Shown: positions 4,150 to 30,671 of the stretch, piece after piece
How positions within the stretch are numbered: the first letter of the stretch is position 1
Layout of the letters: the number at the start of each line of letters is the position of its first letter
Position numbers and translations under genes: made by a program
The notes under the pieces: generated by a model
The model's input: the letters and a program-made list of their open reading frames with translations, nothing else
Databases searched by the model: none
Told to the model about the DNA's origin: nothing
NCBI GenBank assembly: GCA_037445395.1
Contig: JBBIKR010000023.1
Location: 1-32,044 of the forward strand
DNA: 32,044 nt
DNA from: Thermoflexales bacterium
Lineage (GTDB): Bacteria; Chloroflexota; Anaerolineae; B4-G1; DUEL01
Direction: 5' to 3'

Positions 4150-5850
4150 TTACTGGCTCAGGTCCCACTCCACGATGTTGAAGAACGGCGTCGCGCCGGA
4201 GAGGCGGACGTTCTTCAGGCGCGGGCCCACCGCCCAGATGTCCGGGTCCTCCCAGACGCCCAGCCAGTAGACCTTCTCGTAGATGAGACGGGTGATCTTG
4301 TGGAAGGTCTGCTGCCGCTCGGCGGGGTCCACCTGGGTGGCCTGCAACTGGAAGAGTCCGTCCAGTTCCTCGTCGCAGACGGATTGCCAGTTCACGCCGG
4401 AGGGGTTCTCGTCGCTGGGGATTTCGCTGCAGAGCCAGTCGGCAGTTTCGGGGTCGGGGTAGTTGGTGACGGTGGAGTACTCAAAGATGTCGTACTGGCC
4501 GGTGGCGCAGGGGCCGCCTTCGCCGTAACTGCCGAAGAAGATGTCGGAGTCGGCATTGGCCAGTTCCAGTTTGATCCCCACCTGGGCCAGTTGCTGCTGG
4601 GCCACCGCCTGGACGTCCCGGCGAATCTCGCGGGTCGTGGTGCCCAGGGTCAGCACCAGTTCCACGCCGTCCTTATCCCGCACACCGTCGCCGTTGGTGT
4701 CCTTCCAGCCCGCCTCGTCCAGCAACTGTTTGGCCCGCTCCGGGTCGTAGGGCCAGGGCTCCAGCGTCGGGTCCTGCCAGGGGGTGTTGGCCCAGTAGGT
4801 GGCCGGAGGCTTGGTCAGGCCCAGCAGGAGGTCCTTGCAGATGGAGAAGCGGTCAAAGGCCAGGGCAATGGCCTGCCGGACCCGCACGTCCTTGAGCGCC
4901 GGATGTCCCTTCTCCGGGTGCAGGTAGAAGTACCAGCCCTCGTTGTAGCCGGAGAAGACCTTGACCATCTGGACACCGGCCTGCTCCAGGGTGGGGATGT
5001 CGGAATAGGCGATGAAGGTGCCCAGGTCGCCGTCGCCGACCTTCAGCGCCGCCACCTGGGAGGCGTCGTCGGGAACGATGCGGATGAAGATTTCGTCAAT
5101 CTTGGGCCGGCCCAGCCAGTACTTCTCGTTGGCCACGAAGCGGATGAAGGAGCCGGACTCCCACTCCTGGAAGACGAAGGGGCCGCAACCGACGGTGGGC
5201 GCGCGGTTCCACTCGGCGGTATCAATGGTCCCTTCCTTCTCAAAGACGGGGCGCAGGATGTGGGCGGGCAGGAGGCCGTGCCAGAGGGTCGCCTGCCAGG
5301 CGGCGAAGGGCTCCTTGAAGGTCATCACTACCGTCTGAGCGTCGGGGGCTTCCACCTTCTCCAGTTTGTCGTACGGGAAGGTGGAGGCGACGGTGTTCTT
5401 GGGGTTCATCGTCATCTCATAGGTGAAGACGAAGTCCTCGGAGGTGATGGGCGTCCCATCGGACCAGACGATGTCGTCCCGCAGTTTCAGGGTGATGATC
5501 TTGCCATCGGGGGAGATGCCGCCGTTCTCCACGCTGGGCATCTCTTTGACCAGGACCGGATGGGGGTTGTTCTGGTCGTCAAAATCCCAGGCCCAGCAGT
5601 TCCAGATTTGCTGGGTGATGGAGGAGAACCACATGTTGGTGTAGAGGGGGTTGAGGACATCCGGTTCCTGGGTCCAGATGAAGGTGGCGACTTTGCGAGC
5701 AGGCGGCTGGGTGGGCGCCGCGGTCGGCGCAGGCGGCTGGGTGGCCGCCGGTGGCGGTGTCGTCGGAGTGACGGCAGGTTTACAGCCAGCAAGCAGGAGG
5801 GCCGCTATCACCGTCGCGGCCACGAGCAGGAAGAACCGGTTCTGCTTCAT
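4150..5850 (-). CDS. oppA: peptide ABC transporter substrate-binding lipoprotein (SBP family 5)
   Basis: Lipobox LAGC, Pro/Ala/Thr linker, KLRDDIVWSDGTPITSEDFVFT family-5 motif; AGGAGGAG RBS. Confidence 0.9.
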   Translation of the reverse strand: MKQNRFFLLVAATVIAALLLAGCKPAVTPTTPPPAATQPPAPTAAPTQPPARKVATFIWTQEPDVLNPLYTNMWFSSITQQIWNCWAWDFDDQNNPHPVLVKEMPSVENGGISPDGKIITLKLRDDIVWSDGTPITSEDFVFTYEMTMNPKNTVASTFPYDKLEKVEAPDAQTVVMTFKEPFAAWQATLWHGLLPAHILRPVFEKEGTIDTAEWNRAPTVGCGPFVFQEWESGSFIRFVANEKYWLGRPKIDEIFIRIVPDDASQVAALKVGDGDLGTFIAYSDIPTLEQAGVQMVKVFSGYNEGWYFYLHPEKGHPALKDVRVRQAIALAFDRFSICKDLLLGLTKPPATYWANTPWQDPTLEPWPYDPERAKQLLDEAGWKDTNGDGVRDKDGVELVLTLGTTTREIRRDVQAVAQQQLAQVGIKLELANADSDIFFGSYGEGGPCATGQYDIFEYSTVTNYPDPETADWLCSEIPSDENPSGVNWQSVCDEELDGLFQLQATQVDPAERQQTFHKITRLIYEKVYWLGVWEDPDIWAVGPRLKNVRLSGATPFFNIVEWDLSQ

Positions 5851-8742: not shown

Positions 8743-10407
8743 CTACTTTTTCCTGCGCGGCTTCCGACCGGCGGCCAGTCCCGCGATGCCCAGCCCTCCC
8801 AGCAACACCCCCGCCAGGAACACCGATACCGGCTCCGGCACCGTCGCGGAAGGCATGGATGCCGGGGTGGGAGTGGGAGGAGGGGGCGGGGAAACCGTCG
8901 CCGTCGGGGTCGGGGAAGGCGTGGGGGTGAACGTCGCCGCCGGGATGGGGGTGGGTGTCGGGGTGGGTGTGGCAGTGGGTGGGGGCGGCGGGGTCACGCC
9001 CGACGCGGTGGGAGACGGCGGCGCGCCGGCCCCGGCGCCGTTCTCCTCCACCAGCAGAAGCGGCATTCCCCCGATTCGGCATGGGTCATCGCCGCTACAG
9101 CCGGGGAGCGTGAGGAGATAATAGCCCCGGTCCGGGTGGACAATCCACGCCTCGCCCCGCGCGTTCACCAGCAGGGCGCGCGTCGTCTGGGCCGGCACCA
9201 TCAGGGTCTGGGTGATGGAGGTACGGGCCCACGCGACCGCCGTCACCTGCGGCCCCCGGTCCACCACCACCACGCTGACATCGTCCCGCCGTTCCCACTG
9301 GGCGGAACGGAAGCCCCCCAGATAGGTCGCGGCCACCTGATAGGCCGCGAAGGCCGGACGAGGAGCGCCGTGCGGACCGATCAGGCCGTACGGTGCCTCC
9401 CCCACCCCATCCACCATCCGGTATACGGCCACCCGTTCGGCCCCGCCCGCAATCCCCAGCGTCAGTGCCTGAAGGAGAAAGGCCGCCTGCTCCTCCGGCG
9501 TCCCTTCCCCACCCTCCTCCGACACCGGACTGCCGGTTTCCACCCATATCTCCTTCTCCAGGCCGTACTCCGCCAGCAGGCGACGGTAGAAGACGGTGAG
9601 GTCGTAGAGACTCTCCGGCTGGTCGTAAACATCCAGTGTCAGGACGTCAAAGTAAAAGCCGTGAGCGCGGGCCTGGGGGTCGGTCAACAGCGCGTCTATC
9701 AGGCGGCGGACGAAGGGGGGATTGCCCTGGAGGACGTCGGGCCAGTGGGACACACCGCCCAGGTGGATGACCGCGCGGGAGTTCGCGTCACGGGCAACCT
9801 TCCATGTGACGCGCAGAAGTCCGGCGAAGTCCGCCGCCGACCCGGGCCAGTTCTCCGCCCGGTCCGGCCCCTCCCAGACCACCCAGTGGTCAATCCGACC
9901 GGCGTACCGCCGGGCGACGGCCCCCACGAAGACCGCCCAGAGATTTTCGGGGTCATCGGGGGCGGTCTCCAGGCCCCGGGGCAGACCGGTGGCGGGGTCG
10001 GCGGCCCAGGCGGGCACACCGCTCAGCACACCCACTACCTGACGGCCCAGGGCCAGTTCCAGCGCCAGTTGCTCATCGGAGAGGGGCGGGTTCCAGTCGG
10101 CAGGGCCGAAGGGCTGGATTTCGTCCCAGCGGAAGGGGACGGTCGTCCAGCCGGCCCCCAGGTCGGCGGCCGCCCAGGGGGCCTCATGGGCCGCGACGAC
10201 GCCAAAGCGAGGGTCGGGCGCCAGTGCTTCCCCCCGCGCGGGCATCAGCAACCCGACCGCCAGAATCAGGCCGATGACCGGCAGGAGCAGGCGACGGGTG
10301 GCTACAGAAACCTTAAAATTGTTTCCAGGTACTGGACAATTTGCAAAAAGTGGTGTATAATGGTACATAGTGGAACGAAGTGGAACGATTTCCCCATTGA
10401 AGCCCAC
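8743..10407 (-). CDS. secreted clan GH-A (GH39/GH5-like) protein with Pro/Thr linker and PEP-CTERM-like anchor; start uncertain
   Basis: Signal-like RRLLLPVIGLILAVGLL..ALA, FRWDEIQP, RYAGRIDHWVVWEGPD, EIWVETG, PT-rich linker, VPEP + TM + RKPRRKK. Confidence 0.75.
   Translation of the reverse strand: MGFNGEIVPLRSTMYHYTPLFANCPVPGNNFKVSVATRRLLLPVIGLILAVGLLMPARGEALAPDPRFGVVAAHEAPWAAADLGAGWTTVPFRWDEIQPFGPADWNPPLSDEQLALELALGRQVVGVLSGVPAWAADPATGLPRGLETAPDDPENLWAVFVGAVARRYAGRIDHWVVWEGPDRAENWPGSAADFAGLLRVTWKVARDANSRAVIHLGGVSHWPDVLQGNPPFVRRLIDALLTDPQARAHGFYFDVLTLDVYDQPESLYDLTVFYRRLLAEYGLEKEIWVETGSPVSEEGGEGTPEEQAAFLLQALTLGIAGGAERVAVYRMVDGVGEAPYGLIGPHGAPRPAFAAYQVAATYLGGFRSAQWERRDDVSVVVVDRGPQVTAVAWARTSITQTLMVPAQTTRALLVNARGEAWIVHPDRGYYLLTLPGCSGDDPCRIGGMPLLLVEENGAGAGAPPSPTASGVTPPPPPTATPTPTPTPIPAATFTPTPSPTPTATVSPPPPPTPTPASMPSATVPEPVSVFLAGVLLGGLGIAGLAAGRKPRRKK
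10333..10361 (+). promoter_or_regulatory. dcw (Pmra) sigma70 promoter
   Basis: TGGACA-N17-TATAAT upstream of mraZ. Confidence 0.75.
10350..10389 (+). promoter_or_regulatory. MraZ operator repeats
   Basis: GTGG/ATGG/GTGG/GTGG at 10350, 10360, 10370 and 10380, an exact 10-bp period overlapping the -10. Confidence 0.8.
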
Positions 10408-13955: not shown

Positions 13956-14035
13956 TGCTTCATCCCGCCGATCGCTGACGTTCAGTTGTGGCCTTGTAGT
14001 ACAGGATTCATCCTGTCCTGATGCAGGATAAATCC

Positions 14036-14273: not shown

Positions 14274-14391
14274 GGATAAATCCTGCGCTACAATCGGGGT
14301 AGTATAGGATTTATCCTGTCCTGATGCAGGATAAATCCTGCGCTACAATCGGGGTGGTTCACAGGTGCGCAGGTACAGAGAGGTTGAAGAG

Positions 14392-18630: not shown

Positions 18631-19824
18631 ATGAGAGAATCCCGACCGCCCGATTATCTGCTGATCCTGACCACCGCGGCCCTGGTGATGCTGGGGCTGC
18701 TGATGGTCTACAGCACGACCTTTGACTGGGGCTACGGCGATTTCCAAAACCCCTTCTACTGGCTCCAGCGGCAGGTCCTGTGGGTGATACTGGGTGTGGC
18801 CGTGGCCGTGGTACTGGCCCGGACAGACTACACCCTCTGGCGAGACTGGGCAGTGCCGCTGCTGGGCGGGACTCTGCTACTGCTCCTGCTGGTGCTGGTG
18901 GCTGGTCGTCCGCAGTGGGGCGCCCAGCGCTCGTTACTGGGGAGGTCCGTCCAGCCGGGGGAACTGGCAAAGGTCACGACGGTGGTCTACGCGGCCGCGT
19001 GGGCCTCATCCAAAGGGGAGCGCATCCGGGACCTCTCCTACGGCCTGATTCCCTTCTCCGTCTGGATAGGGTTGGTGGCGGGACTGGTGGCCCTCCAGCC
19101 GGACCTGAGCGCGACGGCGGTGCTGGTCTTCGCCGGGTTTCTGGTCTTTTTCCTTTCCGGCGCCCATATCGGGCAGTTGTTCATCGCCGGGCTGATGGGC
19201 ACGGCGGTCTTCTGGGGATTGATCACCGTGTACCCGCACGCCCACGAGCGGTTTGAGGCCTTCCTGGCGGGGCTGAAGGACCCGTCGCTCCTGCCGTACC
19301 ACCCGCTGCAGGCGCTCTACGCGCTGGCCAGTGGCGGCCTCTTCGGTGTGGGGCTGGGGGAGGGACGGGTGAAGTTCTACCTGCCCGCGGCCCACACCGA
19401 CGCCATTTTCGCCGTCATCGGGGAGGAACTGGGACTGTTTGGGTGTCTCCTGGTGGTCGGGCTGTTCGGGGTGCTGGCCTGGCGGGGCTTCCGCATCGCT
19501 CTGCGCGCAAAGGACAGTTTCGGCGGACTGCTGGCCGCAGGGCTGACAGGTCTTCTGGTCTTCCAGGCCGTGCTTAATATGGGCGTCATCGCTTCGCTGC
19601 TTCCGTTTACCGGGACCAACCTGCCGTTCATCGGCATGGGGGGCTCATCACTGGTGACCTCGCTGGCGGCGGTGGGGCTCCTGGAGAGCGTCGCGCGGGG
19701 GCGCCCACCCCGCCGCTGGAAGGGAGAGGAATTCCAGCCACAGAGGACACAGCGGGCGCAGAGTGGAAATGGAAATGAATTAAAAATCAAACATTCTCTG
19801 CGGTCTTCGCGTCCTCTGCGGTGA
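18631..19824 (+). CDS. ftsW: SEDS peptidoglycan polymerase FtsW
   Basis: QPGELAK, QPD, PAAHTDAIFAVIGEELG, TGTNLPF; lies between murD and murG. Confidence 0.92.
   Translation: MRESRPPDYLLILTTAALVMLGLLMVYSTTFDWGYGDFQNPFYWLQRQVLWVILGVAVAVVLARTDYTLWRDWAVPLLGGTLLLLLLVLVAGRPQWGAQRSLLGRSVQPGELAKVTTVVYAAAWASSKGERIRDLSYGLIPFSVWIGLVAGLVALQPDLSATAVLVFAGFLVFFLSGAHIGQLFIAGLMGTAVFWGLITVYPHAHERFEAFLAGLKDPSLLPYHPLQALYALASGGLFGVGLGEGRVKFYLPAAHTDAIFAVIGEELGLFGCLLVVGLFGVLAWRGFRIALRAKDSFGGLLAAGLTGLLVFQAVLNMGVIASLLPFTGTNLPFIGMGGSSLVTSLAAVGLLESVARGRPPRRWKGEEFQPQRTQRAQSGNGNELKIKHSLRSSRPLR
19738..19824. repeat. CAGAG/CTCTG imperfect inverted repeat encoding the FtsW C-terminal tail
   Basis: CCACAGAGGACACAGCGGGCGCAGAG, AT-rich spacer, CTCTGCGGTCTTCGCGTCCTCTGCGGTGA. 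Confidence 0.75.
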
Positions 19825-21462: not shown

Positions 21463-22844
21463 ATTCGTTTGCAGGTCGCCACGTCCACCTTATCGGCATC
21501 GGCGGAGCCGGGCTCTCCGCCATCGCCCGGGTGCTGATGGAGCGGGGGGCCGTCGTCTCCGGCTCCGACCTCGCCCTCTCTCCGGCGGCGGAAGCGCTGG
21601 CGCGGGACGGCGCGCGGGTCTACATGGGCCACCGGGCCGAACACATCGCTGGGGCCGATGTAGTGATTGTCTCGTCGGCGGTGCGGGAGGATAACCCCGA
21701 GGTCCGGGCGGCGCGGGCGGCGGGCATGCCGGTACTCCGCCGCGCGGGCGTCCTGGGGCAACTGATGGAAGGGTACATCGGCATCGCCGTCGCCGGGACG
21801 CACGGGAAGACGACCACGACGGCGATGGTCGCGACGATTCTCTGGGAGGCCGGACTGGACCCCACCTTCATCATCGGCGGGACGCTGGCCGGGCCGGGGA
21901 TCAACGCCCGCGCAGGCGGCGGGCCGCACTTCGTGGTAGAGGCCGACGAGTACGACCGGACGTTTCTGGGGTTTTCACCACGGATTGCCGTCGTGACCAA
22001 CGTGGAGCACGACCACCCGGATTGCTATCCAACCTTTGAGGACTTCCGGGCCGCCTTCGCGGAGTTTGTCGCCCGGATTCCGCCCGATGGCCTGCTGGTG
22101 GCCTGCTGGGACCACCCGGTGGCGCGGGAACTGGGCCGGGAACGGCAGGCCCGGGGAGGGCGGGTGGTCTTCTACGGCCGGGAAAAGGGCGCGGAGTGGA
22201 CGGCCCGGCGGGTCCACGCCAACCCGTCCGGCGGGACGGACTTCTCCGCCGTCCGGTCTGGGCGGACGCTGGGGGAGGTACGGCTGCGGGTGCCGGGGGA
22301 GCACAACGTCCTGAACGCGCTGGCCGCGCTGGCGGTCGCCGACGAGGTGGGGGTGCCCTTTCCCACGGCCCGCGCGGCGCTGGGAGGATTCCGGGGCGTG
22401 GGACGCCGTTTTGAGATCAAGGGCGAGGCGGAGGGTGTCGTCGTTGTGGACGATTATGCCCATCATCCCACCGAAATTCGGGCGACGCTGGCGGCGGCGC
22501 GGGAGCGCTTCCCCGGCCGGAGAGTCTGGGCGGTCTGGCAGCCGCACACGTACAGCCGAACGAAGGTGCTTCTGGAGGACTTCGCCCAGGCCTTTGACGG
22601 AGCCGACCATGTGGTGGTTCTGCCCATTTACGCGGCGCGGGAATCCGACACGCTGGGCGTCAGCAGCGCCGACGTGGTGGCCCGGATGCGTCACCCTGAC
22701 GCACGGCTGGTGGGGTCGCGGGAGGAGGCCGTGGCGCTCCTGGGCACGGAGGTCCGCCCCGGCGACGTGGTCCTGACCCTGGGCGCGGGCGATGGGGATA
22801 AGGTGGGGGAGTGGCTTCTGGAAGTGCTCCGGCGTGAAACGTGA
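21459..22844 (+). CDS. murC: UDP-MurNAc--L-Ala ligase
   Basis: HLIGIGGAGLS, GTHGKTTT, EADEYD, DHPD, GVGRRFE, DDYAHHPTE, QPHTYSRT. Confidence 0.96.
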   Translation: MNSFAGRHVHLIGIGGAGLSAIARVLMERGAVVSGSDLALSPAAEALARDGARVYMGHRAEHIAGADVVIVSSAVREDNPEVRAARAAGMPVLRRAGVLGQLMEGYIGIAVAGTHGKTTTTAMVATILWEAGLDPTFIIGGTLAGPGINARAGGGPHFVVEADEYDRTFLGFSPRIAVVTNVEHDHPDCYPTFEDFRAAFAEFVARIPPDGLLVACWDHPVARELGRERQARGGRVVFYGREKGAEWTARRVHANPSGGTDFSAVRSGRTLGEVRLRVPGEHNVLNALAALAVADEVGVPFPTARAALGGFRGVGRRFEIKGEAEGVVVVDDYAHHPTEIRATLAAARERFPGRRVWAVWQPHTYSRTKVLLEDFAQAFDGADHVVVLPIYAARESDTLGVSSADVVARMRHPDARLVGSREEAVALLGTEVRPGDVVLTLGAGDGDKVGEWLLEVLRRET

Positions 22845-22878
22845 AACGTGAAGCGTGAAACGTGAAACGTGAAACGTG
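22833..22878 (+). repeat. heptamer tandem array (CGTGAAR) x6.6
   Basis: Seen directly; contains the murC stop codon. Confidence 0.92.
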
Positions 22879-25194: not shown

Positions 25195-25308
25195 AACCAC
25201 CAGGATGCGAAGGGTTGGGAAATAAAAAGAATTCCTCGTGTCCTGGTGTCTTCGCAGCGAATAGAAAAGATTGAGGAAAATCTTCGTGTCTTGGTGTCTT
25301 CGTGGTGA
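25195..25308. repeat. CTTCGTGTC 9-mer-based repeat, two right-hand blocks
   Basis: CCTCGTGTCCTGGTGTCTTCGC and CTTCGTGTCTTGGTGTCTTCGTGGTGA separated by A-rich spacers; degenerate left arm ACCACCAGGATGCGAAG. Confidence 0.7.
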
Positions 25309-27387: not shown

Positions 27388-27447
27388 TCACGCTTCACGC
27401 TTCACGCTTCACGCTTCACGTTTCACTTTTCACGTTTCACGCTTCAC
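27388..27447 (+). repeat. heptamer tandem array (TCACGYT) x8.6
   Basis: Unit is the reverse complement of the array at 22833-22878. Confidence 0.92.
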
Positions 27448-27470
27448 ATCCTGCGTCCTGGAGGTCGCTC

Positions 27471-28529
27471 ATGAAACCGTCTGAGAACTTCGCCCGAATC
27501 CGTGTGGTCGGGGTTGGCGGCGGCGGGAGCAACGCCGTCAACCGGATGATAGAGACGGGCATCGCCGGGGTGGACTTCATCGCCGTCAACACCGACGCCC
27601 AGGCGCTCATGCTCTCCAACGCGCCCACCCGCGTGCGCATCGGCGACAAACTGACGCGCGGGCTGGGCGTCGGCGGCAACCCGGAACTGGGCCGCAAGGC
27701 CGCCGAGGAGTCCATGGACGAACTCTATCAGGTCCTGGACGGCTCCGACATGGTCTTCATCACTGCCGGGATGGGCGGCGGGACGGGGACCGGAGCGTCG
27801 CCGGTCGTCGCCAGAATCGCCCGCGAGATGAACGCCCTGACCATCGGTATCGTCACCCGCCCGTTCTTCTTTGAAGGGAAGAAGCGGGCCGAACTGGCGG
27901 CGGCGGGCATTGAGGCCCTGAAGGAGCAGGTGGACACCCTCATCGTCATTCCCAATGACCGCCTGCTGGAGATTGTGGAGAAACGAGTCTCCCTGCAGGA
28001 CGCCTTCCGCCTGGCCGATGATGTGCTCCGGCAGGGCATCCAGGCCATCTCCGAGGTCATCACCGTCCCGGGCCTCATCAACCTGGACTTCAACGACGTC
28101 CGGGCCGTGATGTCCGAGGGCGGCGCGGCGCTGATGGCGGTGGGCCAGGGCAGCGGCGAGAACCGGGCCCAGGAAGCGGCCCAGCAGGCCATTTCCAACC
28201 GTCTGCTGGACATCACCATAGACGGCGCCCAGCGCATCCTCTTCAACATCACCGGCGGCGCGGACCTCTCCCTGCACGAGGTCTACGAGGCGGCGACGCT
28301 CATCCGGGAGACGGCGCATCCCGATGTGGACCTGCGGTTCGGCGCGGTGATTGACGAGGAGATGGGCGACCAGGTGCGCATCACCCTCATCGCCACCGGC
28401 TTTGACGCCGGACAGCGCCCGCAGAAGGCGGCCCGGACCCCCGCCCGGGAGACTCTGGAGCGCCCGGTGCCCGTCTTTGATAAGGACGACCTGGAGATTC
28501 CCGCCTTCCTGCGCCGCCGGACCGGGTGA
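27471..28529 (+). CDS. ftsZ: cell division protein FtsZ
   Basis: [36 protein letters not shown]; GGAGG RBS. Confidence 0.98.
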
Positions 28530-28596
28530 TCGGTTTCGCAAAAAGACACAAAGGCACCGTATCTTCGTGTCCTGGCCAGAGGTATCAGGAGGTACC

Positions 28597-29481
28597 ATGG
28601 CGGAGGGCGCTGGCCTGACCGCGCGCTCGTCCCTGAAAGAGGCCATTCCGGCCTTTCAGGAGTACATGCGCGCGCGGGATTTCAGCAACCATACCATTCG
28701 CTCCTTCACCTCGGACCTGCGCATCCTGGGCGAGTACATCGGCATGGAGACGGCGGTGGGCGACATCGGCACCCGTGACCTGAACCGATTCGTCCACTGG
28801 CTCACCGACGAGCGGGACGTCCCCTGTACGCCCAAGTCCCTCTCGCGGCGGATCACCACCCTCAAGGTTTTCTTCGGCTGGCTGGCGGAGACGGGCGTCC
28901 TGCCGGAGGACCCCGCTGCGCCGGTCATCCACCGGCCGGTGCTGACCGGGCCGCCCCGCGTGCTCACCGACGAGGAGGTCGCCCGCGTGCTGGAGGTGAC
29001 GGAGGCCCTGCGCCACGCCGACCCCCCCGACGCCCGACCGCATCTCCTGGTCACCCTGCTCCTGCATACCGGCATCAAAAAGGGCGAATGCATGAACATC
29101 GCGCTGGACCACATAGACCTCTCCGACCCGGCGCGACCAACGTTGTGGGTGCGGTACGCCAGCCCGCGCCGGAAGCACAAGGAACGACGGCTCCCCCTGC
29201 CGTCCGACTGGCCCGCCGTTCTGGCCGAATACCGCGCCCAGTACGACCCCCAGGACCGATTGTTTCCCTGCACTGCACGTAACCTGGAGTACGTGCTGGA
29301 CGACGTGGCCCAGCAGGCCGGGCTGACCGAAGGCCTCTCCTTTGAGACGTTGCGCTGGACGTGCGCGGTGCGCGATTACCGCGCGGGAATGACTTCGGAG
29401 CAGTTGCGGCAAAAACTGGGCCTCACCCGCATCTCCTGGCGGGAAGTGGAGCCGAAAATTGCCCGTCTGGCGGAGAAATGA
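28597..29481 (+). CDS. XerC/XerD-like tyrosine-recombinase homolog lacking catalytic residues
   Basis: SNHTIRSFTSDL, SLSRRITTLKVFFGWL, DP, PRVLTDEEV, LLLHTGIK.GE, KER, ETLRW, QKLGL; AGGAGG RBS. Confidence 0.88.
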   Translation: MAEGAGLTARSSLKEAIPAFQEYMRARDFSNHTIRSFTSDLRILGEYIGMETAVGDIGTRDLNRFVHWLTDERDVPCTPKSLSRRITTLKVFFGWLAETGVLPEDPAAPVIHRPVLTGPPRVLTDEEVARVLEVTEALRHADPPDARPHLLVTLLLHTGIKKGECMNIALDHIDLSDPARPTLWVRYASPRRKHKERRLPLPSDWPAVLAEYRAQYDPQDRLFPCTARNLEYVLDDVAQQAGLTEGLSFETLRWTCAVRDYRAGMTSEQLRQKLGLTRISWREVEPKIARLAEK

Positions 29482-30671
29482 CCACAGAAGACGGACGATC
29501 AGCAATCAGCGATCAGCGATCAGCGATCAGCGACATGCGATCAGCGATTAACGATATACGCCCCCCCCACCCTGTTCTGATTGACGGTTCCCGGCTCATC
29601 GCCGAGGCCTGTGTCCGGGCCGGGGCCGACGCCTACGTCGGCTACCCGATCACCCCGGCCAGCCTCATCTTCTTCTACGCCAGCCGCCGCTTCCCCATCG
29701 CGCTGCCGGCTCCGGACGAAATCACCGCCCTGCAGTGGATGGCCGGCCTCTCCGCCGCCGGACACCTCCCGGTCTCCGCCACCTCCTTCCCGGGGTTCGC
29801 CCTGATGGTGGAGTCCGTCAACATGGCCTACATGATGGAACTCCCCATGCTGGTGATTCTGGTCCAGCGGCTGGGACCGGCCACCGGTACGGCCACCGCC
29901 GGTGCCCAGGGCGACCTCCTGCTTCTGAACGGCCTGGTCTCCGGCGGCTACCCGCTCCCCGTCCTCTGCATCGCCGACCTGGAGGACTGCTGGCTCCTTC
30001 CCCCCGTCGCGCTGCAGACGGCGGTGGACCTGCGCACGCCGGTGGTGCTCCTGACCTCCAAAGAGATGGTGATGACCCAGGAGAGTTTTGACCTGGCACA
30101 CCTTCCGGAGATAGAACCGGTCCGCCGGACCTTCTACGAGGATTCCGGCCCATATTGCACCTACGACGCCGGTGACGGGCTGGTCCCGCCCTTCCTGCCG
30201 GTGGGCAATGGCCGGCACCAGATCCGGCTGAACGCCTCCACCCACGACCGTTGCGGCATCATCCAGCACACCAGCGACGAGGCCATGGCCAACACCCGCC
30301 GCCTGCAGGCCAAAGTGGAGGCCGGGACCCCCGTCCTGTACCAACTGGACGAGCAGGAGGGGGCGGAGACGCTGGTGGTCACGTACGACATCACCACGGG
30401 CGCGGCGCGCGAGGCGGTGATGATGCTTCGGGCGCAGGGTATCCCCGTCTCTCTGCTGGTCGCCCGGACGCTTCTGCCGCTACCCGCCGTCTACCTGGAA
30501 ACGATAGACCGCTACCCGCGCGTGGTGGTGGCCGAGGAGAACCACCAGGGCCAACTGGCGCATCTGCTCTTCGGACGGCGCATCCCGCCCCATGTCCGGC
30601 TGGTCACCGCCATTGGGCGGATGATCCGACCCGACGAAATTGTCGGGGCGACCCTTGCGGTTGCCTCCTGA
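29478..30671 (+). CDS. 2-oxoacid:ferredoxin oxidoreductase alpha subunit
   Basis: GYPITPAS, DEI, ATSFPGFALMVE, VQRLGPATG, VVVAEENHQGQL; ATGA overlap (alternative ATG at 29535). Confidence 0.88.
   Translation: MTTEDGRSAISDQRSAISDMRSAINDIRPPHPVLIDGSRLIAEACVRAGADAYVGYPITPASLIFFYASRRFPIALPAPDEITALQWMAGLSAAGHLPVSATSFPGFALMVESVNMAYMMELPMLVILVQRLGPATGTATAGAQGDLLLLNGLVSGGYPLPVLCIADLEDCWLLPPVALQTAVDLRTPVVLLTSKEMVMTQESFDLAHLPEIEPVRRTFYEDSGPYCTYDAGDGLVPPFLPVGNGRHQIRLNASTHDRCGIIQHTSDEAMANTRRLQAKVEAGTPVLYQLDEQEGAETLVVTYDITTGAAREAVMMLRAQGIPVSLLVARTLLPLPAVYLETIDRYPRVVVAEENHQGQLAHLLFGRRIPPHVRLVTAIGRMIRPDEIVGATLAVAS
29497..29559 (+). repeat. heptamer array (GATCAGC) x9, degenerate
   Basis: Seen directly; 63 bp, within the 5' end of the alpha-subunit ORF. 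Confidence 0.88.
30642..30667 (+). repeat. degenerate copy of the 26109 REP
   Basis: GTCGGGGCGACCCTTGCGGTTGCCTC, encoding VGATLAVAS. Confidence 0.75.

Follow-up and report, generated by a model that had tools for sequence, protein, structure and literature searches.

The active site of tyrosine recombinases is made up of Arg-I, Lys-beta, the HxxR motif (His-II and Arg-II), a His or Trp at position III and the Tyr nucleophile. SroF (YopR), the master repressor of SPbeta-like phages, is reported in a preprint to have a recombinase fold without the catalytic Tyr, to clamp its operator as a monomer and to repress transcription; the preprint also remarks that phage P4 integrase regulates its own expression (bioRxiv 10.1101/2025.11.27.690993). 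TnsF, the target selector of Tn6022-like Tn7 transposons, is reported to have an inactivated tyrosine-recombinase domain that recognises a DNA site (PMC10293859). Here we describe XerL, a Xer-like protein that has lost most of this active site and is encoded in a 32,044-nt stretch of DNA (the window; positions 1 to 32,044, forward strand, of contig JBBIKR010000023.1, assembly GCA_037445395.1) from a Thermoflexales bacterium of the chloroflexotal class Anaerolineae. The titles and abstract openings returned by a literature search held no description of an inactive Xer-like family in Chloroflexota.

XerL shares with SroF a recombinase fold without the Tyr, and its candidate operator lies at its own promoter. 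SroF is a phage protein with a 24-bp operator, whereas the gene for XerL belongs to the host, is inherited vertically among chromosomal core genes rather than in a phage, and has a candidate site of 10 bp; SroF/YopR did not appear among the PDB sequence or fold matches of XerL, and no close kinship is apparent. TnsF carries N-terminal zinc fingers and tandem CB-like domains and resides in a transposon, while XerL has a plain Xer architecture consisting of integrase domains only, with housekeeping neighbours instead of Tn7-like ones and no mobile context. P4 integrase differs from XerL in being catalytically active.

The xerL coding sequence (28597..29481, + strand) comprises 294 codons plus a stop, starting at an ATG at 28597 that lies 4 nt downstream of an AGGAGG ribosome-binding site (28587..28592, +). 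Residues 19-98 (28651..28890, +) form an N-terminal core-binding, SAM-like domain matched by Pfam PF02899 (34.6 bits) and PF13495 (33.4 bits), with predicted helices at residues 13-26, 31-48, 59-72 and 79-98, and residues 122-279 (28960..29433, +) form a C-terminal catalytic-type domain, without a full active site, matched by Phage_integrase PF00589 at 35.6 bits against a cut-off of 27.1. The start, the ribosome-binding site and both Xer domains that a previous, sequence-only reading of this DNA had recognised in the ORF are all borne out. Against the NCBIfam equivalog models for XerA, XerC and XerD, XerL scores 85.3, 78.4 and 76.4 bits, far under the curated cut-offs of 220, 335 and 330; it therefore lies outside these equivalogs, and no curated model fits it. 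PHROGs returned only generic integrase families, and PADLOC gave zero matches.

An AlphaFold2 model built from an 80-sequence alignment (pLDDT 96.2, pTM 0.84) confidently predicts a two-domain tyrosine-recombinase fold. Foldseek matched it to XerA, XerH, IntI4, Cre, lambda Int and the Tn1549 integrase, with TMq values of 0.62-0.71 against DNA-bound Cre, lambda Int, IntI4 and XerH, and a family profile reached XerA and XerD with E-values of 2.7e-32 and 4.9e-32. The last helix of the model (residues 278-293) is the one that bears the Tyr in active enzymes, and the C-terminus follows only 9 residues after the Tyr column. As a separate observation from these searches, the Xer-like profile also matched the first 269 residues of PDB chain 9i5v_14 (E = 1e-20), with Arg-I and HxxR kept. 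This chain of 401 residues bears the name 'ribosome-associated translation inhibitor RaiA' in its deposition and may represent a Xer-RaiA fusion or a naming issue.

We placed the catalytic columns with three kinds of alignment, namely phmmer to XerA (5hxy), a family profile to XerA, XerD and Pyrococcus abyssi XerA, and MAFFT with the two canonical recombinases of the same genome, all of which gave the same catalytic positions for XerL. The Arg-I position is occupied by K161 (29077..29079, +; alignments to XerA and to the genome's own recombinases), the His-II position by E250 (29344..29346, +; XerA, own-recombinase and profile alignments) and the His/Trp-III position by L276 (29422..29424, +; XerA and profile alignments). 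The Tyr column holds E285 (29449..29451, +), an assignment that rests on XerA and P. abyssi XerA, whose Tyr residues align here, since the XerD profile alignment ends one residue short of the XerD Tyr. The coordinates previously given for the altered motifs, TGIK at 29068-29079, ETLR at 29344-29355 and LGL at 29416-24, proved exact, as did the claim of a missing nucleophile: no Tyr occurs in residues 277-294. To the four altered positions, which hold, we can add that Lys-beta (K195, 29179..29181, +; XerA and profile alignments) and Arg-II (R253, 29353..29355, +; alignment A1 and three homologue sets) are kept and are the most conserved residues, R253 being invariant across the family. XerL thus resembles the XerC, XerD and XerA resolvases in its two-domain fold, its clear homology, its Lys-beta and Arg-II and its chromosomal, single-copy gene, and differs from them in that Arg-I, His-II (and with it a complete HxxR), His/Trp-III and Tyr have all been replaced and the C-terminus is short. 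At the level of sequence, XerL is confirmed as catalytically dead, the residues needed for cutting having been lost.

The pattern is fixed among relatives. Across 119 close homologues (at least 66% identity), K161, K162, K195, R197, R253 and W281 do not vary, every sequence has Ile, Leu or Val at position 276, and 113 have Glu at position 250, which is variable among distant homologues. The 25 residues that follow LG[LIV] are free of Tyr in all 119, so that the Lys, the Arg and the missing Tyr of the reported pattern are conserved throughout this set. In 76 representatives of distant clusters the Arg-I position is Lys in 58 and Arg in 9, and Arg-II is Arg in 119/119, 76/76 and 119/119 of the three homologue sets. 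A distant branch of the family (~36-39% identity) belongs to Ktedonobacteria and Thermogemmatispora and carries Lys, Gln and Leu at the Arg-I, His-II and His-III positions, together with an invariant Tyr three residues past the canonical column (119/119). Judged by these residues, the Ktedonobacteria branch looks like an intermediate state of active-site loss, and it would let the dismantling of the active site be followed step by step. That Tyr, and the retention of Lys-beta and Arg-II, are what could be said for XerL still being an enzyme, with an unconventional nucleophile or partial chemistry. We consider this highly improbable: when an alternative Tyr near the pocket was judged by conservation across homologues, no conserved Tyr was found anywhere in alignment A1, the Anaerolineae branch has none after LG[LIV], and three other positions of the catalytic pentad have changed as well.

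The gene is also under selection. Among 14 orthologues from the window's genus, the 90 pairs whose dS exceeds 0.05 give Nei-Gojobori dN/dS values of 0.09-0.18, with a median of 0.12. xerL is present, nearly always as a single copy, in 38 of the 41 genomes of the window's order, and in 44 of 45 genomes from the rest of the class (which is Anaerolineae going by the record titles), with 55 of 355 other genomes of the phylum also carrying it at E <= 1e-25. A scan of species genomes with a 19-sequence alignment confirmed 579 of 600 candidate stretches as xerL, the best 80 of the 579 coming, by title, from Anaerolineae, Thermoflexales, Caldilineae, Ardenticatenaceae, Promineifilaceae and Thermanaerothrix daxensis. 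Strong purifying selection, breadth of distribution and the fixed residue pattern together imply that xerL is not decaying, in agreement with the earlier proposal, favoured also by the model's pLDDT of 96, that the enzyme was repurposed. By these measures xerL is a vertically inherited, single-copy host gene under strong selection across the class.

In the window xerL stands at the end of a division and cell wall (dcw) cluster with the order mraZ, rsmH, ftsI, murF, mraY, murD, ftsW, murG, murC, murB, ddl, ftsQ, ftsA, ftsZ, and is followed by two 2-oxoacid:ferredoxin oxidoreductase genes. The ftsZ gene (27471..28529, +; Pfam Tubulin and FtsZ_C) lies directly 5' of xerL across a gap of 67 nt, and at the other end the xerL stop codon shares the sequence ATGA (29478..29481, +) with an in-frame ATG of the ORF for the oxidoreductase alpha subunit. 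A consensus scan found neither a sigma-70-like promoter nor an intrinsic terminator between ftsZ and xerL, which together with the ATGA overlap makes co-transcription of ftsZ, xerL and the downstream genes plausible in the window organism. Assembled contigs from four metatranscriptome runs match porA as well as ftsZ, the ftsZ coverage stopping at 28557 with a loose end of 8 letters, with none on xerL at 92% likeness or above; these contigs come from a relative and break at repeats. The scanned ORFs near xerL include no mobile-element genes, the neighbours being dcw and oxidoreductase genes, as the sequence-only reading had held.

From this arrangement that reading had also drawn a role for XerL in the divisome, co-expressed with ftsZ for nucleoid occlusion or segregation. 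The close spacing fits such a role, and ftsZ is directly upstream of xerL in 12 of the 13 assessable genomes of the genus. The remaining member (G013) carries the same xerL-porA-porB block behind an unrelated Fe-S gene, without ftsZ, and beyond the genus the linkage vanishes: ftsZ is near xerL at none of the 19 loci taken from the order's other genera (~7 kb on each side) and at 1 of 80 named Anaerolineae loci, and xerL there has a strong promoter of its own. The sequence-only reading had itself named a linkage that is not conserved as grounds for refutation, and this is the outcome. We therefore reject ftsZ synteny as a functional clue, the linkage being confined to one genus with no conserved association with division genes, and regard a divisome-linked XerL as very unlikely. 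Clustering of the ORFs around 20 and then 80 xerL loci brought out no general neighbour; the commonest neighbour was a convergent LuxR-Kelch gene in 7 of the 20, and the largest cluster spanned 17 of the 80. One Anaerolineae MAG has group II intron domains on the minus strand ~2 kb upstream of its xerL (L063, 1-786; RF02003 at 64 bits).

The operon's repeats had likewise been put forward as something XerL might bind. The ftsZ-xerL spacer contains a small hairpin (28545..28571, +) that repeat comparison identifies as a copy of a genome-wide octamer element; its fold is no better than that of shuffled sequences (z = -0.19) and the scan found no terminator, so we rejected it as a terminator. The octamers (C/A)CACGAAG/ACACAAAG form hairpins in intergenic spacers at window positions 19804, 24026, 25233-25300 and 28562, and in the window genome CACGAAGA occurs 200 times and the reversed word 54 times. 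In sister genomes the spacer between ftsZ and xerL is filled by hairpins of a related kind. By sequence these look like a REP-like element family. As genome-wide elements of the genus that have only ACGAAG-type letters in common with the candidate site described below, which is the one that tracks the gene, we discarded them as the XerL target. Other repeats of the window are of a different kind. Three tandem heptanucleotide arrays occupy 22832-22878, 27388-27457 and 29496-29551, with (GTGAAAC)n between murC and murB, the inverse (TTCACGC)n between ftsA and ftsZ, and (GATCAGC)n directly past the xerL stop, the first two being 89-97% complementary to each other across 4.5 kb. Upstream of mraZ (10350-10395) a TATAAT box precedes two direct GTGGAAC repeats 3 nt apart, which we take to resemble MraZ boxes, and the unusually long ftsI-murF spacer (~400 nt) holds a 40-nt direct repeat at 95% identity (13996-14035 and 14299-14338) as well as a 41-nt inverted repeat.

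Outside the window's genus, the DNA upstream of xerL has a feature of its own. A k-mer comparison of xerL upstream regions with control regions picked out CTAT[AG]CGAA, and the candidate operator is the non-palindromic 10-mer CTA[TC][AG]CGAA[AG], of which we take CTATACGAAA to be a form and a putative target of XerL. At 38 non-redundant loci a promoter of the form TTGACA - ~17 nt - TAnAAT precedes xerL, and the 10-mer follows 4-19 nt past the -10 box, ahead of the ribosome-binding site; at some loci it overlaps the likely transcription start point, and at six it is inverted, sitting upstream of the -35 box or immediately downstream of the -10 box, and sometimes doubled. In the 1.0 Mb of sequence that 114 loci make up, the 9-mer occurs 46 times, and 43 of these copies fall within 300 nt upstream of xerL, 40 on the plus and 3 on the minus strand, while genome-wide the 9-mer is at or below background frequency. 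The exact site occurs in 41 of 116 unique xerL upstream regions and a further 10 have it with one mismatch (seven as CTACACGAA), for 51 of 116, compared with 3 of 109 control windows at up to one mismatch and 0 of 128 for the exact site. In four of five genomes the full promoter-plus-site pattern matches the xerL promoter alone. The site is thus tied to the xerL gene.

A non-palindromic site of ~10 bp has the footprint size of one recombinase-fold monomer. That the 10-mer occurs in two orientations, at variable spacing and across the likely start point points to DNA bound by a protein rather than to an RNA element, and a site that follows one gene across the class while keeping to background frequency elsewhere is most simply read as the operator of that gene's own product. 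Another regulator could nevertheless bind the 10-mer, or it could be an mRNA leader element, with XerL binding other DNA, for instance as a nucleoid-associated or chromosome-organising protein. In keeping with this, the site is missing, even at one mismatch, from 65 of the 116 upstream regions and from all 13 upstream regions of close relatives (at least 80% identity), it is absent from the window's genus, and the consensus promoter suggests high xerL expression of a sort common among abundant DNA-binding proteins. The confinement of the site to one gene weighs against it, as do its occurrence in both orientations and an Rfam search of seven loci that found no known RNA leader upstream of xerL, and we judge this alternative rather unlikely. 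Read on the other strand, the site matches the XerC-side arm of Escherichia coli dif at 6 of 10 bases, with the arm taken in the form given in PMC3025954, a weak resemblance in sequence, and a dif-pattern scan of five genomes gave one plausible site.

We see about an even chance that XerL has been domesticated into a site-specific DNA binder that does not cut and that its own promoter is probably what it represses. XerL would keep the two-lobed clamp, with Lys-beta and Arg-II as phosphate contacts and a Lys in place of Arg-I; Lys161, Lys195 and Arg253 may hold the backbone phosphate, and with no nucleophile the DNA would be clamped and left uncut. The most likely clamped site would be the 10-mer at the xerL promoter in most Anaerolineae, where XerL sitting at the transcription start could act as a roadblock and produce negative autoregulation, and the few further copies of the 10-mer elsewhere may be other targets. 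We infer each of the three steps, that XerL binds DNA, that the 10-mer is its site and that binding represses, and by analogy we think that XerL may work like SroF. In the window's genus xerL would have moved behind ftsZ and lost its own promoter; the site there lies beside the conserved active recombinase gene of the lineage. The window holds no copy of the 10-mer, and the missing upstream site in this genus implies that autoregulation is not the conserved core function of XerL there.

That recombinase gene belongs to one of two canonical tyrosine recombinases with full RKHRH-Y motifs in the window genome (91% complete, 5.9% contamination), both of which score under the XerC and XerD cut-offs. 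One, of the L002 type, neighbours ychF and is kept by 22 of the 24 family genomes; the other is sporadic (7 of 41 genomes) and looks mobile. The best XerD-model scores of the window lineage (G000, family f1) are 180 and 124 bits against the cut-off of 330, leaving it without an XerC/D-grade recombinase. Elsewhere in the class many genomes have two XerD-model matches above 300 bits, and at least two genomes with two XerC/D-grade genes (G378 and G330) carry xerL too. Because it coexists with both, XerL is a third paralogue and not a stand-in for XerC or XerD. Genomes having both weaken the replacement candidate, and likewise weaken, without overturning, the earlier suggestion that XerL is the silent partner of an active Xer.

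A related possibility is that XerL serves as a non-catalytic subunit or accessory factor, placed at half-sites or accessory sites, that steers, restricts or prevents the strand exchange carried out by an active recombinase, which would be the L002-type enzyme here and XerC/D elsewhere. The conservation of the L002-type gene is consistent with this, and so is what lies beside it: in the window's genus TTTCGTATAGCC occurs ~90-160 nt past its stop at 10 of 13 loci, and it is found there in the window genome (contig C120) and in two other genera as well, often as arrays of 2-3 copies or as an inverted pair whose members are 55-100 nt apart. Ahead of it, on the opposite strand, is a -10-like TAGAAT. 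These copies of the site lie in the gap between ychF and the L002-type recombinase gene (G000 C120:4858, or L002 1272-1280, and L179-L188), and in the window genome three CCCCTTGTCTACTTGTA repeats stand beside the site near this gene. A tmRNA gene is a classic integration spot, and one genome (G491; locus L199, contig C5) has an inverted pair of sites 80 nt after its tmRNA gene (tag GEQQLALAA) at 4262-4333, which would also suit an accessory factor, and a single copy before hflX at 265 of the same locus. Near the tmRNA-adjacent pair, however, no mobile genes or integrase were found. Most xerL promoters have a single site without an inverted partner, as the 40 plus-strand and 3 minus-strand matches reflect, xerL persists in genomes with two XerC/D-grade genes, and the C-terminal segment, which recombinases exchange within their tetramers, seems short in XerL. 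On balance we regard an accessory role as unlikely, though worth keeping in view.

In conclusion, the proposed functional link to ftsZ fails, while a conserved dead enzyme and a candidate site for it hold. Entries for the family now go by the names XerD, tyrosine-type recombinase, SAM-like-domain protein or hypothetical, and the XerD and tyrosine recombinase labels would mislead counts of Xer systems and mobile elements in Chloroflexota. A broader reading, which we put forward as a long shot, is that XerL and its 10-bp site descend from a recombination module turned host regulator, one that regulates itself and gates the active recombinase of its lineage. An ancestor of the filamentous Chloroflexota (Anaerolineae) would have made the change, and Ktedonobacteria would still preserve an intermediate that kept its Tyr. 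In the window's genus the sites and an outward-facing promoter stand at the 3' end of the active recombinase gene; if true, a recombinase-derived repressor would be controlling recombination. Non-cutting recombinase folds have been described in a phage protein (SroF) and in a transposon protein (TnsF), and XerL would represent the domestication of such a fold on a host chromosome, with a short candidate target site that makes its function directly testable.
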